In this document: positions 1-39,358 of the stretch, in pieces
How the letters are laid out: each line of letters begins with the position of its first letter
Numbering within the stretch: the first letter of the stretch is position 1
IMG/VR virus record: IMGVR_UViG_3300031922_000033
Location: 1-39,360 of that record
Source of the DNA: a virus
Taxonomy: Duplodnaviria > Caudoviricetes
Reading direction: 5' to 3' (one strand)
DNA: 39,360 nt
Made by a program: the position numbers and the translations under genes
The notes under the pieces: generated by a model
Told to the model about the DNA's origin: nothing
The model's database searches: none
Seen by the model: the letters and a program-made list of their open reading frames with translations, nothing else

Positions 1-51
1 TCTAGTCTTTGGGAAATGGGTAACATTGGTTTTCGTAGCACTAGCACTCAT
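1..51 (-). CDS. 5' end of a gene running off the left edge (MSASATKTNVTHFPKTR...), probable partner of the 48-698 gene
   Basis: ATG at 51 overlaps the TGA stop of the upstream minus-strand gene (ATGA coupling); 17 open codons to the edge. Confidence 0.45.
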   Translation of the reverse strand, partial: MSASATKTNVTHFPKTR

Positions 52-698
52 GTTTTAGTTACCTCACTTATCAATTGTTTGGAATTATCTAATGCTGAAC
101 TATAATGATTAGAAACTTGATTAACAAGTTCATTAAGATGCATGACGATTTCATGATGAACATTGACATGAATTAAAACATTGTCTTGGTTATCCTGAAT
201 ATCAAGATAATATTTTGTCTCGTTTTTGTCAAAAGACAGTTTAATAAAAGTTTCAGGAACAAACTTGAATTCTGAATTTTCAGGCAGATAAGCAGGTAAA
301 CTCATAATCGTATGGACTTTTTGGGGCGAATTCTTTATCGTGCAATTAAAATTAAAACCAAATGCTATTATAGATTGATGTTCAGGGAGAGATTCTAATA
401 TTTGCTTGATAATATTAGGGAATTTGCGTGCTGCTGTTGTGTTCTCAGGCGCTGTTACGTTTACTTGCATTTGTAGCTTAGTATCCATAGAGAGAGCCGT
501 TGTAGGAATAAATGTTGGCACAAAAGAAATTGTAAGCTTTGCTCTTTTATAATTTATAACAGTAGGTGATAAAGGGTCAGGCAAAAATGTTGACTCGGGT
601 ATTTCGCCATCGATTAAAGACCTCAATTTATCAAACTTGAGATCGTTTTTATTTAATTGATCGAAAACAACTACGGTATTCCTAACATCAATGTCCAT
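48..698 (-). CDS. AT-rich accessory (moron) hypothetical protein, ~216 aa, resembling TIGR04255-like proteins
   Basis: ORF with AGGGGA RBS about 6 nt before ATG 698; motif ILESLPEHQSIIAFGFNF; lower GC than phage core; family call tentative. Confidence 0.6.
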   Translation of the reverse strand: MDIDVRNTVVVFDQLNKNDLKFDKLRSLIDGEIPESTFLPDPLSPTVINYKRAKLTISFVPTFIPTTALSMDTKLQMQVNVTAPENTTAARKFPNIIKQILESLPEHQSIIAFGFNFNCTIKNSPQKVHTIMSLPAYLPENSEFKFVPETFIKLSFDKNETKYYLDIQDNQDNVLIHVNVHHEIVMHLNELVNQVSNHYSSALDNSKQLISEVTKT

Positions 699-737
699 AT
701 GCAATCCCCTTTCGCTATAAGCACCCTTATCTTATGT

Positions 738-764: not shown

Positions 765-821
765 TTATTCTTGATTTTTTCTGCATTTATTCTTCAATCC
801 ACTTTCACGTGATCGTTAATA

Positions 822-6748: not shown

Positions 6749-8682
6749 GAACGCTATCCCTCGATATAGAAACTTACTCAGGCACAGATCTTATCAAGCA
6801 TGGAGTATATCGATACGTAGAAGATCCTGAATTTACGCTATTGTTGATAGCATATGCGGTTGACGATGAGCCTGTCAGTCTAATAGATATTACAACCGGC
6901 CCATCGCCAACCCTTGATGAATTAAAGGCTTTATTATGTGACGCTCAGATCATAAAAATAGCCTATAATGCAAACTTTGAGCGCGTTTGTCTATCAGCGT
7001 TTTTTAATTTAAAGTTGCCACTGGAGCAGTGGAGATGCACAGCTGTTCAAGCCGCGTCTTTAAGCCTTCCGCGGACACTTGCGGCGGTAACTAATGTTAT
7101 GGGCTTACCGGAAGATAAGCGAAAGCTAGACATAGGTAAGAGCTTAATTCAGTATTTCTGCAAACCTTCGAGAAGTAATGGCGGCAAGAGAAACACGTCT
7201 GACCGTGACCCTGCAAAATGGGAAACGTTCAAGGAATATTGCAAACAAGACGTTGAGGTTGAACGCACGGTGCGAACTAGACTTGAGCGTTTTCCGCTTT
7301 TAGCCGAGGAATGGAAGCTGTGGATTCTCGATCAGCGAATCAATGATAAAGGCGTCAAGATCGACCGCATACTTGTATCAGAGGCTATACAGTGCAGCGA
7401 AGCTCATAGAGCCAAACTGGAAGCCGAGGCGATAGCGCTAACCAACCTTGAAAATCCCAACAGCTTACCGAAGCTAAAGGCGTGGCTGAGTTCGGCTACA
7501 GATAGCATAGTCACGGATTTAACCAAAGCGGCCATACCAGAACTTATAAAGTCAACAGATAACTATAAAGTTAAGCGCATTTTGAAAATCCGACAGGAGC
7601 TCGGAAAAACATCAGTCAGCAAATATCAAGCAATCGAACGAGTAGTCAATGCGGATAGTCGTGCACGGGGCTTATATCGCTTCTACGGAGCAAGTAGGAC
7701 AGGACGCTGGGCCGGACAGCTGATACAAACTCAAAACTTGGCGCAAAACAAACTAGCTGACCTCGCCTTAGCGCGACAGCTATTGCGCGAAAGCAGGCAC
7801 GACGATTTAGAAATGCTTTATGGTAATGTTCAGGATACACTTTCACAGCTGATACGTACCGCTTTCATTCCCGACAAAGACAAGGTTTTATACGTGCTTG
7901 ATTTTAGTGCGATAGAAGCGAGAGTTCTATCGTGGTTAGCCGATGAACGCTGGCGCATGGATGTCTTCAGAGAACACGGCCAAATATACGAGGCTTCGGC
8001 AAGTAGAATGTTTCATGTACCTATTGAAAGAATTCGAAAAGGGCTACCGGAATACGAATTACGCCAAAAAGGCAAAATTGCGGAATTAGCGCTTGGCTAT
8101 GGGGGCGCAGTAGGAGCTTTAATCGCTATGGGTGCGCTACGGATGGGACTGTCAGAGGATGAGCTGCCAAAGCTTGTAAGTGCTTGGAGAGCCAGCAACC
8201 CCGCAATAAAAGCATTTTGGTGGGGTGTAGAAAATAAAGTGCGAAACACAATACAGGATAACCGTACAACAGAAATACAAGGTCTAAGGTTTAGTTATGA
8301 GTCAGGTTTTCTTTTCATACGTCTCCCAAGTGGCCGCCGATTGGCTTACTCGAAACCTAGAATAGAAGGGGATGAAATAACATATGAGGGTGTCGAGCAA
8401 GGGAAAAAAGTTTGGGGTAGGATAAAGACCTACGGCGCTAAATTGGTTGAAAATATCGTGCAAGCAATAAGTCGCGACTGTCTAGCCGTTAGTATGACAG
8501 CTCTCGCTGAAAAAGATTACGCAATAGTCAGCCATGTACATGATGAAGTGGTCATTGAAGCTGAACAATCACAAGACGCATTAGAAAACATGAAAGAGAT
8601 CATGAGTATAACACCGACCTGGGCCGCCGGCCTACCACTTCGTGTGGAGGGTTTTGTATGTGACTTCTATCAAAAAGGATGA
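6745..8682 (+). CDS. polA: Family A DNA polymerase with 3'-5' exonuclease domain
   Basis: ExoI LDIETYS; TGRW; motif A DFSAIEARV; motif B RQKGKIAELALGYG; motif C HVHDE. Confidence 0.95.
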   Translation: MRTLSLDIETYSGTDLIKHGVYRYVEDPEFTLLLIAYAVDDEPVSLIDITTGPSPTLDELKALLCDAQIIKIAYNANFERVCLSAFFNLKLPLEQWRCTAVQAASLSLPRTLAAVTNVMGLPEDKRKLDIGKSLIQYFCKPSRSNGGKRNTSDRDPAKWETFKEYCKQDVEVERTVRTRLERFPLLAEEWKLWILDQRINDKGVKIDRILVSEAIQCSEAHRAKLEAEAIALTNLENPNSLPKLKAWLSSATDSIVTDLTKAAIPELIKSTDNYKVKRILKIRQELGKTSVSKYQAIERVVNADSRARGLYRFYGASRTGRWAGQLIQTQNLAQNKLADLALARQLLRESRHDDLEMLYGNVQDTLSQLIRTAFIPDKDKVLYVLDFSAIEARVLSWLADERWRMDVFREHGQIYEASASRMFHVPIERIRKGLPEYELRQKGKIAELALGYGGAVGALIAMGALRMGLSEDELPKLVSAWRASNPAIKAFWWGVENKVRNTIQDNRTTEIQGLRFSYESGFLFIRLPSGRRLAYSKPRIEGDEITYEGVEQGKKVWGRIKTYGAKLVENIVQAISRDCLAVSMTALAEKDYAIVSHVHDEVVIEAEQSQDALENMKEIMSITPTWAAGLPLRVEGFVCDFYQKG

Positions 8683-15685: not shown

Positions 15686-17015
15686 ACGTGAACGGGTAGT
15701 CAAAGATAACCTGAAACGCTGTAGAAACGACAAAATCTATTTCGCAGATAAAATTCTTGGGATTAACCTTACGGGCAAGCAAGCTGATGCAGTTAGCTTA
15801 GGAGGTAGAGTGTCTGCCAAAGTTGCCGGTCGGCGCTTCGGTAAGTCTTTGACAACGCTGACTGATATGCTACATGAATGTGCGACAAAAAAACAGCAGC
15901 GATGGTATGTTACAGCGCCGTCAATTGATCAGGCAAAGATATATTTCAGCGAAATAGAGCAGTTTTTGGGCAATCCGAAACTGCCGTTCTCGCTTCTGGT
16001 ACCGGAGAAGAAATTCAAGCTTAGCCCATTTCCGGAAGTTGAACTAATAAACGGCAGTAGGATTATGGCGCGTTCAACGGCTAGGGACGGCATATATCTG
16101 CGAGGCAAAGGCGCGGATGGCGTAGTAATCACAGAAGCGGCTTTTGTGAAGGACAGGGTTTATACAGACGTTATCAGGGCGATGGTGCTGGATCGCAAAG
16201 GCAAAATTCGTGCTGAGAGCACACCGAACGGCAGTCAGGGCTACGTTTACCAGCTTTACAAGCAAGGTTTAAGTGATGAGAACGGGTACTATCGCAGCTT
16301 TCACGCTACGGCTTATGATAATGCTCGGCTTGACAAAAACGAGATAGAGCAAATTCGCAAAGAGATTCCTGAGCTTGCATTTCGCGTTGAGTACTTGGCA
16401 GAGTTCGTGGATGACGACACGATCGTCTTCCCGTGGGTAGTGCTGCAGGAGATATTCGACGACTACGTACCAAAGGCGACGCCGGAAACTGGCCGCAGAT
16501 ACACTATCGGCGTAGATCTGGCAAAGTACCAAGACTATACGGTGATAACAGTCTTGGATGTTACGCAGCCACCTTTTACGCTGACAGACTGGCACCGCTA
16601 CCGGGGCAGGCTGTACGGTGATATTGTTGCTCAAGTGAATGAGTTACAGCAAAAATATCTGGCGACAGTGTACTTGGATGCTACAGGAGTAGGGGATCCA
16701 GTTGCCGAGCAAATTAGAAACTGTCATCCGTTTGTATTTACACAGCGCAGCAGGGAAGAGCTTATCTCTAATCTGATTGTTCAAGCGGAACAGAAAAGAA
16801 TACTCTTGCCGGCAGGGAATACGATTTTACGAGATGAGTTGCGTTATTTTCAGCGTATACGACACGGCTCTAACGTCAGGCCAGAAGCTCCACAGGGTGG
16901 ATACGATGATTGCGTGATGAGTTTAGCGCTGGCGTGCTGGCCGATGCGCATAGGCGCGGGCGCACTGTCGAAAGAAACGAAACTGCTATTCAAGGAGGCA
17001 AGCTTATATGCTTGA
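15663..17015 (+). CDS. terL: Terminase large subunit
   Basis: Walker A GRRFGKS, STPNG coupling motif, nuclease GVDLA, DATGVG, DDCVMSLALA. Confidence 0.95.
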   Translation: MMQMLTPERERVVKDNLKRCRNDKIYFADKILGINLTGKQADAVSLGGRVSAKVAGRRFGKSLTTLTDMLHECATKKQQRWYVTAPSIDQAKIYFSEIEQFLGNPKLPFSLLVPEKKFKLSPFPEVELINGSRIMARSTARDGIYLRGKGADGVVITEAAFVKDRVYTDVIRAMVLDRKGKIRAESTPNGSQGYVYQLYKQGLSDENGYYRSFHATAYDNARLDKNEIEQIRKEIPELAFRVEYLAEFVDDDTIVFPWVVLQEIFDDYVPKATPETGRRYTIGVDLAKYQDYTVITVLDVTQPPFTLTDWHRYRGRLYGDIVAQVNELQQKYLATVYLDATGVGDPVAEQIRNCHPFVFTQRSREELISNLIVQAEQKRILLPAGNTILRDELRYFQRIRHGSNVRPEAPQGGYDDCVMSLALACWPMRIGAGALSKETKLLFKEASLYA

Positions 17016-28803: not shown

Positions 28804-29577
28804 GTGAGCCACTTTTCTTTTGCAGGTGAACACTCGACTCTCTATCATGTTCGGATGCTCAAATCTGAAGAGTCGATACTCCCTCCTACCCGTGATAAGG
28901 TTATTTTGTTGCCCGGTAGACATGGCGCATTGAGAATGTTGCCAGACTTGGGAGAGCGTCACATCACACTCGAGTGTTGGCTTGATGTTGATACAATCCC
29001 GTTCATCGAGGGGCAGAGACAGGAAAGGCTTCGTGCAGTCGCCGCATGGCTTAATCCGCTGCGTGGAGTTCAGAAACTAATATTTGATTATGATACCGAC
29101 AAGTATTTTGACGCAATCGTTACTTCGCAGGGGATAAACTCACGTATAGAAGTACATCAGGGGATTTTCCCTGTGGAGTTTGTCTGTCCTGACCCATTCT
29201 ATTATGATGCGGCCCCGGATGTCGTGACAATAGCTGTATCTCCTCATCAGCATAATCAGCGCGGCACAGCACCGGCGGATCCTTTACTCAGATTACAGGG
29301 AGTATCGCTTGGTGGTTCGCAGAGGCTAATAATCCAAATTGGTACGCTGTCTGTCACATATACGGGGGCATTAGCTGCAGGAAACTGGTTGGAGATAGAC
29401 TGTCAGGCAAAGACAGTGTTTCGAGTAGTTGGAGCAACACGGACAAGGGTGCTTGCGCTTTTAGAGCGTCCTGTCTTTCCACAGCTTGCGCCCGGCATAA
29501 ATACGATAACGATAACTGCAACGGGTGGGGCAACTTGGTCACGCCTAGACATCCACTGCCGGAATAGATGGCTTTAG
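28804..29577 (+). CDS. Distal tail protein (Dit)
   Basis: FSFAG start, LIFDYDTDKYF, FVCPDPFYY, LAPGIN, ends RNRWL. Confidence 0.88.
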   Translation: MSHFSFAGEHSTLYHVRMLKSEESILPPTRDKVILLPGRHGALRMLPDLGERHITLECWLDVDTIPFIEGQRQERLRAVAAWLNPLRGVQKLIFDYDTDKYFDAIVTSQGINSRIEVHQGIFPVEFVCPDPFYYDAAPDVVTIAVSPHQHNQRGTAPADPLLRLQGVSLGGSQRLIIQIGTLSVTYTGALAAGNWLEIDCQAKTVFRVVGATRTRVLALLERPVFPQLAPGINTITITATGGATWSRLDIHCRNRWL

Positions 29578-29607
29578 TCGCCCTCGTGCGGGGGCGTGGA
29601 TTGAAAA
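29577..29607 (+). CRISPR. Solitary type I-C CRISPR repeat within the late operon
   Basis: GTCGCCCTCGTGCGGGGGCGTGGATTGAAAA: GTCGC 5' end, 7-bp stem CGCCCTC/GGGGGCG, GTGGATTGAAA 3' handle; same family as the repeats at 39202 and 39261. Confidence 0.85.
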
Positions 29608-29637
29608 AAACAAACAAACAAGCAAGGAGGCGAAATT

Positions 29638-36725: not shown

Positions 36726-38003
36726 TTACCTCCTTGTGATTGTTGTCTTGATCGACTTCCACATGTCGTCCGGTACTAAGCCTAGTCGCCAAAGGGATAT
36801 CCCTTGTAACCGATAACGTTTAGCAACTCCGATTTTTTCAAGGATGCTCTCACTTGTTTCACTGTGAGCAGATATGGCTAAAATCAGTTTTTCTGCGGGA
36901 ACAACCTCAAGCGCCATCTCCACTGCCCGCACCACCCGGTTAAGCGGTTCAGGCCTTGGTCCGTAATCGTGCGCCATGATAATGATTCGGTCGGCCAGCT
37001 TGCCAAGTGCTTCATAATCGTATCCTCGATATGAGCTGTTCGGAGGATGAATTGTAAGCGTCAGGGTTTTCCCTGCGTCTCTGAGTGGTTGTGATAGCAT
37101 GGCAATAAAGCGGGTAAAGCTGTCACGGATCTGTAGTTGCGTATCTCCTGAAGCGTACCTGCCTAAGCCTTCTAGGTTTAGATTAACGCCGTGATACAAA
37201 GATGACTCTTGTACAATAGCGGCAACTGTGCGAGACATGGCCTGTTCATTGCTAAGAAAAGCGGTAAGAAACCCGTCACGGTTTGTCTCGTGAACGACCA
37301 TCTCTGTTCTGAGTCCGAATTCTTTTGCTCTGGAAAGTACTATTTCCCAATTGGGTGGGCGTAACCAAAAATGTCGTGAAGTGCGGCGGGTTAAAAGGTT
37401 GCCTTGTTCGTCTATAGTGTACCAGCCTAACGCCAATTCTCTTACAATGTCGGTGTTGCCTGGGGCTATTTCAGGAAAAGGAGCACCAAAAAGATCTAAC
37501 CAGCTGCTTGCTGCTCCAGCACCTAAAGCGTAAAAGCCAATAACGTTTATGTTGCGAGGTGGGGAACTGATGTGTATAGTGCGGGTTTCCGAGACCCAGT
37601 TTACCTTACAGCCAAATGCTTCACTGAAAAATCTCAACGGTACAAGCGTCCGGCCATTAACGATAATCGGAGGTGTATCGAGTGTTAATGGCTGGTCATT
37701 TACCATAGCAATTTTATTGTTAGCCTGAAGTGTAATTCTTGTATTGCCGTCGCTGGCTGAGATGGTGCGTGTATTGCTGTCCCAGCTTACGTTTATGTTT
37801 ATAGCTTCTGCGATTAATCGAAAAGGTACAAAAGTTCTACCGTTTACAATCTGCGGAGGCACATCAAAGCGTACCGGCAAGCCATCCAATAAAACGGTAA
37901 CAACTGGGGAATTGGCCATTGCCTGTTGATATGGTGGCACGGACAAAGATATGATAATAACAAATAGAAGTGTAGTTATTTTGAAAGCTGCTGCTCTTCT
38001 CAT
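36726..38003 (-). CDS. Exported copper-amine-oxidase-N-terminal (stalk) domain plus degenerate GH18 domain protein
   Basis: Signal peptide; GRTFVPFRLIAE and GRTLVPLRFFSE repeats; GH18 features GVNLNLE, YDY, IMAHDY, GISLWRLG. Confidence 0.85.
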   Translation of the reverse strand: MRRAAAFKITTLLFVIIISLSVPPYQQAMANSPVVTVLLDGLPVRFDVPPQIVNGRTFVPFRLIAEAININVSWDSNTRTISASDGNTRITLQANNKIAMVNDQPLTLDTPPIIVNGRTLVPLRFFSEAFGCKVNWVSETRTIHISSPPRNINVIGFYALGAGAASSWLDLFGAPFPEIAPGNTDIVRELALGWYTIDEQGNLLTRRTSRHFWLRPPNWEIVLSRAKEFGLRTEMVVHETNRDGFLTAFLSNEQAMSRTVAAIVQESSLYHGVNLNLEGLGRYASGDTQLQIRDSFTRFIAMLSQPLRDAGKTLTLTIHPPNSSYRGYDYEALGKLADRIIIMAHDYGPRPEPLNRVVRAVEMALEVVPAEKLILAISAHSETSESILEKIGVAKRYRLQGISLWRLGLVPDDMWKSIKTTITRR

Positions 38004-38529: not shown

Positions 38530-39126
38530 ATGCAGATTATAGATACAAACTTGATCACGAAACCTATCGCAAGAAGACGTATTACTAGTAGAATAGTCGT
38601 TCATCATACAGCCGGGGCAGATCATAGCGCAGCAGAAATTCATCGTATGCATTTAAACCGTGGTTTTAGCGGAATCGGTTATCACTATATCGTCCGGACT
38701 AATGGCTCAATCGAACGTGGTAGACCTGAAGAGCTGCGTGGAGCTCACGCTGGGAAGGCGAATGCTGATAGCATCGGAATAGGCTTAACGGGTAACTTTG
38801 AAAAACGGGTACCGGCAACGGCTCAGATGGACGCTCTGGCGTGGCTCATCGGGGACATACGGCAGCGACGTGGACGAGATATTACTGTGATACGTCATAG
38901 TGACGTTATGGCGACACTGTGTCCGGGCAAGTTGTTTCCTTGGGCACAATTGATGGAGAGATTACAATATCGGGAATATGTAGTCCAGCCCGGCGACACG
39001 CTGTGGTCGATAGCGGCGGCACAACTTGGTAACGGGACACGGCATCTAGAGATCCGTGAGCTGAATAGACTGACCTCGAATGCCATCTCGGTGGGACAGA
39101 AATTGAAAATCCCACGTCTGGAGTAA
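38530..39126 (+). CDS. Endolysin: Amidase_2 N-acetylmuramoyl-L-alanine amidase plus LysM
   Basis: IVVHHTA, IGYHY, GAHA, SIGI, HSD...T.CPG; YVVQPGDTLWSIA LysM. Confidence 0.95.
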   Translation: MQIIDTNLITKPIARRRITSRIVVHHTAGADHSAAEIHRMHLNRGFSGIGYHYIVRTNGSIERGRPEELRGAHAGKANADSIGIGLTGNFEKRVPATAQMDALAWLIGDIRQRRGRDITVIRHSDVMATLCPGKLFPWAQLMERLQYREYVVQPGDTLWSIAAAQLGNGTRHLEIRELNRLTSNAISVGQKLKIPRLE

Positions 39127-39158: not shown

Positions 39159-39187
39159 TAGACATCTTTTGGTCTTTATAGTACACT
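39159..39187 (+). promoter_or_regulatory. Sigma-A promoter of the mini-array
   Basis: TAGACA (39159-39164)-17 nt-TACACT (39182-39187), 14 nt before repeat 1. Confidence 0.7.
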
Positions 39188-39201
39188 ACAATCAGTGGGT
39201 G

Positions 39202-39292
39202 GTCGCCTCTAATGGGTGGGGCGTGGATTGAAACTATAAATTATTTATGCAACGAGGGTGGTCGCCCCTTACGCAGGGGCGTGGATTGAAAC
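39202..39292 (+). CRISPR. Type I-C CRISPR mini-array: two repeats, one 26-nt spacer, no cas genes
   Basis: R1 GTCGCCTCTAATGGGTGGGGCGTGGATTGAAAC (39202-39234); spacer TATAAATTATTTATGCAACGAGGGTG (39235-39260); R2 GTCGCCCCTTACGCAGGGGCGTGGATTGAAAC (39261-39292). Confidence 0.9.
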
Positions 39293-39345
39293 AAGCGAGC
39301 ATGCCTATAACCGCGGATCGATATTGTGACTTTATCATGGTACGG

Positions 39346-39358
39346 CTCGCCTCCACCA
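39346..39358 (+). other. Probable attR core (duplicated 3' end of tmRNA or a tRNA)
   Basis: CTCGCCTCCACCA ends in CCA like an acceptor-stem 3' strand but lacks a preceding T-arm; lies after the lysis genes. Confidence 0.55.

Follow-up and report, generated by a model that had tools for sequence, protein, structure and literature searches.

Results

Two type I-C repeats lie between the lysin gene and a likely attachment core of a phage genome

The window analyzed here is the entire virus record IMGVR_UViG_3300031922_000033 (Duplodnaviria; Caudoviricetes; 39,360 nucleotides), a linear sequence that is approximately 86% complete and encodes a repressor, an ImmA-like protease and replication, head, tail and lysis genes. 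No integrase was detected in the record by a search whose controls were positive in 14 of 14 cases. Where relatives of the lysin, of the ImmA protein and of a tail-region protein are named, they come from Syntrophomonadaceae, Clostridia and Peptococcaceae, and the host is therefore likely a Bacillota anaerobe. Downstream of the lysin gene lies a small unit (Table 1) in which a predicted promoter precedes a degenerate type I-C CRISPR repeat (R1), a spacer-like sequence and a canonical repeat (R2); it begins 32 nt past the lysin stop codon and ends 55 nt short of an 11-nt attachment-like core. All of these parts, including a GGGTG pentamer ahead of the repeats, are present where the first-pass annotation had placed them.

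Table 1. Coordinates of the features discussed in the text (positions in the 39,360-nt window).
Feature	Position	Strand	Description
Remnant of type I-C repeat 3' end (probable)	793..802	-	10 nt; at the site where L017 keeps an intact R2; recognized by eye
Protospacer in DNA polymerase gene	6785..6818	-	Matched 34/34 by the first available spacer of the L019/L022 array
Solitary type I-C repeat	29577..29607	+	Shares its first base with the end of the Dit stop codon
Endolysin (amidase + LysM)	38530..39126	+	Last gene ahead of the mini-array
Predicted sigma-70-type promoter	39159..39187	+	Upstream sequence AT-rich
R1, degenerate type I-C repeat	39202..39234	+	33 nt; hairpin kept, 17-nt 3' end intact
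Predicted mature crRNA-like RNA	39224..39281	+	58 nt: 11-nt handle + 26 nt + 21-nt 3' hairpin
Spacer-like guide	39235..39260	+	26 nt; AT-rich 5' part
R2, canonical type I-C repeat	39261..39292	+	32 nt; exact repeat of host-type arrays
Likely attachment core	39348..39358	+	11 nt identical to the tmRNA 3' end hosting a related provirus

The promoter-like pair consists of TAGACA (39159-39164) and TACACT (39182-39187) separated by a 17-nt gap, and matches the consensus at 9 of 12 positions. Shuffles of the 461-nt region yield 0.8 +/- 0.9 such sites by chance; the match by itself is weak, and its placement alone is suggestive, the -10 hexamer ending 14 nt ahead of R1. We found no terminator between the lysin gene and the unit, such that read-through from the late operon would also be possible. 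Folded alone, each repeat forms a hairpin followed by an 11-nt 3' segment, as in type I-C repeats, with a 6-bp stem and 8-nt loop in R1 (-10.0 kcal/mol) and a 7-bp stem in R2 (-12.9 kcal/mol). Neither repeat is a product of chance: shuffling the window 100 times never produced an R1-shaped pattern, and R2 agrees exactly with the repeat of long arrays. The 3' end of R1 would supply the 11-nt 5' handle of a processed RNA.

The spacer is 69% AT overall and 88% AT over its first 17 nt, a composition resembling promoter DNA that is in keeping with a promoter-directed guide, and its 5' end reads TATAAA, a -10-like hexamer that the earlier annotation overlooked. Its final five nucleotides duplicate the five that precede R1, so that GGGTG stands before both repeats, with six of the seven preceding letters agreeing. 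The TTGCAT hexamer previously read as a -35 element is indeed present on the minus strand of the spacer (39247-39252); we dropped it as promoter evidence, since a single hexamer carries little weight. Rfam returned no match in the window, and ARAGORN predicted no gene.

The unit belongs to the phage

The tmRNA whose 3' end is identical to the attachment-like core was identified in L053, a locus carrying a related provirus, with an E-value of 1.4e-65. Beyond position 39358/39359 the contigs of sequencing runs X2 and X13 show three different continuations, as expected for an attachment junction. The lysin gene and the mini-array are joined on single contigs, with zero differing letters, in runs X2, X3 (to position 39290) and X8, which come from three studies, X2 and X3 possibly being the source of the record itself. 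Run X13 covers the stretch from R2 to the attachment core and leaves R1, the spacer and the 3' half of the lysin gene without cover, a gap that proves nothing. No RNA data set stands among the 23 runs listed, which has no bearing on expression. The location between lysin and core, together with the single-contig joins, indicates that the unit belongs to the phage and occupies its usual accessory site; both the site and the identity of the unit across runs argue for a functional, phage-encoded RNA. The first-pass annotation had stated that its interpretation would fall if the repeats were what is left of a decaying host array beyond the prophage. The location inside the phage, between the lysin gene and a tmRNA-type core, and a spacer of 26 nt, not of normal length, rule out such an origin.

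The closest relative, L039, carries a terminator and an unrelated accessory gene at the site of the unit. A second accessory gene of the window, counter-oriented at 36726-38003 (-) and encoding a copper amine oxidase N-terminal domain and a GH18-like domain, is kept at the same site in L039. The lysin alone as a query retrieved no loci; an alignment search with it retrieved 13 distant ones, and in the closest of these (L001) the lysin gene is followed by a terminator and by no repeat. Searches of viral contigs with three patterns found no relative carrying the same mini-array, and a looser short-spacer pattern recovered three unrelated loci from the same collection, of which two are ordinary arrays and the third is a lone repeat. 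Among annotated phages, matches to the mini-array were at chance level only, and the lack of a relative with the same mini-array in these two collections counts against the guide RNA that we favour. As the earlier annotation had stated, the window lacks recognizable cas genes: no cas family of NCBIfam matched any of the 52 ORFs scanned, and PADLOC gave no match for the eight ORFs close to the repeats.

R2 is the repeat of type I-C arrays, one of which carries a spacer against the phage

All positions of R2 (32/32) agree with the repeat of full CRISPR arrays, and its exact sequence occurs in nine metagenome loci, among them L016 (48 copies), L019, L022 and L023. The L016 array adjoins cas3, cas5c, cas8c and cas7, with cas1c nearby, and the predicted Cas7/Csd2, Cas8c, Cas5c, Cas3 and Cas1c proteins all score above NCBIfam cut-offs. 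The exact occurrence of R2 beside these genes assigns the unit to type I-C, and its identity to the repeat of long arrays argues that the unit addresses such a system. All 87 distinct array spacers, drawn from five loci, measure 33-38 nt compared with 26 nt in the unit, bearing out the earlier observation that the phage spacer is unusually short.

Loci L019, L022 and L023 have spacers in common and thus represent a single array lineage, which we infer to belong to the host of the phage. Their contigs are without flanking genes, and the same repeat is also present in unrelated-looking contigs (L014, L016 and L018), two points that count against the reading we favour. One spacer of this lineage matches the DNA polymerase gene of the phage over its full length (Table 1; E = 1.4e-14; 1 of 38 spacers of the lineage and 1 of 87 overall). 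The TTC motif sits one base further upstream of this protospacer than usual, a displacement that resembles slipped acquisition, and interference at this site may be inefficient. That an array built on the R2 repeat carries a fully matching spacer provides the phage with a motive for counter-defence, and this match argues for an RNA directed at the host CRISPR-Cas system. The repeat family was also abundant in all four runs examined, each of which contains the phage or a relative (bin 39258-39290), which argues in the same direction. Among genome contigs, the exact repeat was found in one genome only, an Elusimicrobiales assembly in which a single degenerate-array copy is present and Cas5 had no match; this assembly is also the single positive among the 21 genomes of its phylum.

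Other occurrences of type I-C repeats were noted in passing. L016 carries an extra, near-exact solitary repeat approximately 3 kb downstream of its array (7072-7105, -); L020 and L021 contain pairs of type I-C repeats, spaced by 82 and 125 nt, in which an A/C-rich stretch resembling that behind the tail repeat of the window (described below) follows the second copy; and the viral contig L026 has a solitary type I-C repeat between small genes (1501-1561, -).

A predicted transcript might be processed into a crRNA-like RNA if R1 is cleaved early

Applying the Cas5c cleavage rule described for type I-C regulatory RNAs (bioRxiv 10.1101/2024.12.27.630466) to a transcript of the unit gives the 58-nt product listed in Table 1. 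Folding of the entire transcript at equilibrium favours an alternative pairing of R1 with the end of the spacer and R2 that is 4-5 kcal/mol better than the two canonical hairpins (transcript ends 39292-39345), a competing long-range pairing made possible by the five bases shared ahead of the repeats and by the 5' arms of the repeats. The predicted probability of the R1 stem is 0.92-0.99 in nascent RNA up to 39245 and around 0.7 up to 39260, falls to at most 0.06 for ends between 39292 and 39345, and is 0.30 if the RNA reaches 39360. As the R1 hairpin is predicted to form only in nascent RNA, processing may be poor, and Cas5c would need to cleave R1 co-transcriptionally. This modelled fold counts against the guide RNA that we favour.

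A fold that conceals R1 and a promoter match near chance level would both suit an inert or decaying remnant, in which repeats were acquired by recombination at the attachment-proximal site and give rise to no useful RNA. The probable decayed repeat elsewhere in the phage (793-802) would fit this explanation too, as would the absence of the repeat 3' end from all 10 related records searched, only two of which are at least 90% complete. We nevertheless regard a remnant as unlikely, as the stem and the complete 17-nt 3' end of R1 persist despite a changed loop, R2 is perfect, the unit is unaltered in three studies, and the presence of repeats at three separate places in a phage targeted by CRISPR resembles repeated gain.

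Searches for a target of the 26-nt guide

The first-pass annotation had expected the guide to show itself by a PAM-flanked seed match; none emerged above chance in the phage, and none in 54 loci or in viral contigs. Within the phage, the best TTN-flanked site agrees at 11 of 15 counted positions, a score reached by 79 of 100 shuffles, in line with the earlier statement that the window holds no convincing protospacer; we rejected self-targeting by the spacer, and likewise by the 26 nt past R2, at this chance level. In the 54 loci (549,155 bases) there was no TTN-flanked seed run of at least 10, a protospacer pattern with 20 specified bases had no match in 2.9 million viral contigs, and a pattern of repeat end plus seed had none in genome contigs, where close genomes were possibly left out; both the viral-contig and the genome-contig scans may omit near genomes. 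That a target was not found in any search run, and that the promoter matches at only 9 of 12 positions, counts against the guide.

The scan itself performed as intended, as it recovered a TTC-flanked 13/15 match for a repeat-spacer-repeat unit of L016. This unit, located between cas3 and cas5 at approximately 16905-16975 (-), consists of a degenerate repeat, a 31-nt spacer and a second repeat, and its match lies at about 17208, directly past the cas3 stop codon and approximately 235 nt upstream of the unit. We interpret it as a CreR-like element, and the repeat family thus appears to use this kind of regulation; by analogy, a cas3-cas5 unit with its own target at a same-repeat locus would support a regulatory guide in the phage. 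The best overall match of the phage spacer in the 549 kb lies in the same locus, between cas7 and the array (L016 13482, -), with a seed run of 10, 15 of 22 matches and ATA in the PAM position. Shuffled spacers reached this run in 11 of 400 cases, and run plus total in 4 of 400. Lacking a TTC PAM, found post hoc and lying outside the host, this leader match is a weak lead.

Two further readings of the guide bear on these searches. Were the phage to borrow Cascade for repression of its own promoter, the target might be sought at window position 548 (+), where a single TTT-flanked seed run covers 10 positions, or in the missing part of a record that is about 86% complete and without integrase. 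Such self-regulation is barely credible, given that site 548 lies within a coding region, that a run of 10 appeared in 1 of 20 shuffles and that a score of 11 appeared in 79 of 100. Competitor-targeting viral mini-arrays typically carry full-length spacers, and the 26-nt guide is shorter than every array spacer examined here. We therefore hold it very unlikely that the guide sends host Cascade to a rival phage or plasmid in superinfection exclusion, a use of viral mini-arrays that is known (PMC6858448; summarized in PMC10120712) and with which a lysogen-expressed position would agree; no match was found in the 2.9 million viral contigs (20 specified bases) or in related phage loci, incomplete as these collections are.

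Further type I-C repeats in the phage and its relatives

A third type I-C repeat of the window, missed by the earlier annotation, lies in the tail operon (region 29577-29637), where an unstructured A/C-rich linker leads from it into the ribosome-binding site of the tail-region gene that comes next. The gap between Dit and this gene spans 60 nt in the window, compared with 12-25 nt for 20 of the 21 related loci considered, a count that includes one locus without a Dit-type end and excludes L045, which has no upstream sequence. None of 22 related loci has a repeat at this gap. We consider the tail-operon repeat a candidate Racr (a lone, decoy-type repeat), or else a Cas5c cut site in late mRNA, and the presence of this additional repeat in the phage and its absence from relatives argues for an anti-CRISPR role of the mini-array.

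In L017, a related prophage fragment, the lysogeny operon contains one lone repeat identical to R2 (2032-2063, -), upstream of a TIGR04255-like gene. A 44-nt flank of this site is identical in the window (region 737-802, -), which on visual inspection also retains the probable 10-nt remnant listed in Table 1; MAFFT did not place the remnant against the repeat. The neighbouring lysogeny-operon gene of the window (48-704, -) encodes an unannotated protein of 218 aa that falls near hypothetical and putative TIGR04255-family clusters in the Atlas (0.91-0.92), and BLASTP found no significant similarity between its product and that of the L017 gene at the same site. On our reading of these sequences, type I-C repeats may have been gained repeatedly in a lineage under type I-C attack.

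These solitary repeats, in the tail operon of the phage and in the lysogeny operon of L017, would make lone decoy-type repeats the rule in the lineage, and thereby lend weight to a pure decoy, in which the processed RNA occupies Cas5c, Cas7 or Cascade and the spacer has no target. Every target search was negative, as a decoy would predict, and the same five nucleotides ahead of both repeats suggest that a lone repeat with its flank was duplicated or recombined, rather than a guide captured; moreover, a lone type I-C repeat RNA, RacrIC1, is described as inhibiting immunity (PMC10651486). Racrs are solitary, however, whereas the two repeats of the unit (starting 59 nt apart, at 39202 and 39261) would yield a full crRNA shape with both handles, and the negative searches did not include the host genome. 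In addition, mimics with a mutated spacer are reported to have lost most or all anti-CRISPR activity (Liu et al., 10.1101/2024.10.29.618823). A pure decoy is thus possible but, in our judgment, doubtful.

A broader scheme would unite the sites into a protein-free RNA counter-defence against type I-C, with the guide silencing the promoter region of the array leader instead of a cas promoter, for which the L016 match is the weak lead, and the Dit-stop repeat acting as a Cascade sponge. Cas5c would then cut the abundant tail mRNA at this repeat, leaving the sponge over the ribosome-binding site of the next gene. We found no literature on a leader-silencing guide or on a Dit-stop repeat sponge, and rate this scheme as a long shot.

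Discussion

The name Cracr has been given to crRNA-like RNAs of viruses that silence promoters of cas or toxin genes, and among the 219 predicted cases are some of type I-C and some from Bacillota hosts (Liu et al., bioRxiv 10.1101/2024.10.29.618823). The unit resembles them in being phage-borne and cas-less, in placing repeat-like sequences around a short spacer and in having its own, here predicted, promoter: it sits among phage genes of a virus record in which none of 52 ORFs matched a cas family, upstream of an attachment-like end, and its 26-nt spacer falls below the 33-38 nt of all 87 array spacers. A further hallmark of the class, a minimum of nine PAM-proximal positions shared with either a host CreA/CreR spacer or a PAM-flanked cas or toxin promoter, was not seen in the loci scanned, among which the host cas locus was not represented. 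The Cracrs reported there as tested are of types V-A, I-E and I-F and the type I-C example given comes from Neisseria (10.1101/2024.10.29.618823), and no acr gene was recognized beside the unit. As that catalogue draws partly on IMG/VR, it may already include this element.

The type I-C regulatory crlRNAs of hosts, among them regulators of Nezha, Gabija and CRISIS (bioRxiv 10.1101/2024.12.27.630466), likewise have an 11-nt handle and a short spacer, and the two-repeat Gabija RNA is given as 57 nt, compared with 58 nt predicted here. By this analogy, a degenerate first repeat followed by a short spacer and a second repeat would be the layout of a type I-C regulatory RNA, which argues for the same function in the phage. 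These crlRNAs and CreR (10.1101/2023.03.10.532045) are described between host cas3 and cas5c, by their target, whereas the unit lies in a cas-less phage. Phage regulatory mini-arrays were also described by Shmakov et al. (PMC10120712), whose prophage mini-arrays share one divergent repeat, a shortened spacer and a proposed repression of the cas promoter; the viral cases given there are of types I-B and I-F and have a matching counterpart in a mini-array of the host, whereas the unit is type I-C. Its sequences had no match in two supplementary files of that study.

RacrIC1 (Camara-Wilpert et al., 2023; PMC10651486) is, like the repeats of this phage, a viral copy of a host type I-C repeat. The tail-operon and L017 repeats fit the Racr pattern as described there, standing directly behind a gene and inside an operon, and in the window only the tail-operon repeat is solitary; the unit differs in having two repeats, and the tail repeat in standing behind a structural gene (Dit) rather than an acr gene. 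None of the three phage repeat sequences was present in nine supplementary files of PMC10651486, including a catalogue of 2,194 rows.

Taken together, we favour the reading of the unit as a Cracr-type RNA anti-CRISPR, competing for Cascade and repressing a promoter of host cas or defence genes, to which we assign a probability of about 0.5; that it is an anti-CRISPR RNA of some kind, guide or decoy alike, we consider distinctly probable. The unit is likely transcribed from its own promoter, and host Cas5c would cut the transcript into the 58-nt crRNA mimic, which would be loaded into host Cascade in competition with genuine crRNAs. A partial seed match likely steers the complex to a host promoter, either that of the cas operon or that of a CRISPR-guarded defence gene, where Cascade would repress without cutting. 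The core of the first-pass interpretation, a phage-borne type I-C element with an abnormally short spacer within the phage, is upheld; the idea itself has precedents in Cracrs, predicted type I-C cases included, and in phage regulatory mini-arrays. The unit belongs to a known class of phage RNA trick and opens no new one.

If a true Cracr, the unit would be a clean type I-C case from a Bacillota-type phage that is itself matched by a documented CRISPR spacer and whose genome has a further repeat of decoy type. As type I-C Cracrs appear in the preprint as predictions and not among the tested cases, the 134-bp unit would offer a compact object for separating guide from decoy. Though no target was found in the loci searched, the unit is real and well formed, and has an unusually direct link to CRISPR pressure on the phage that carries it.
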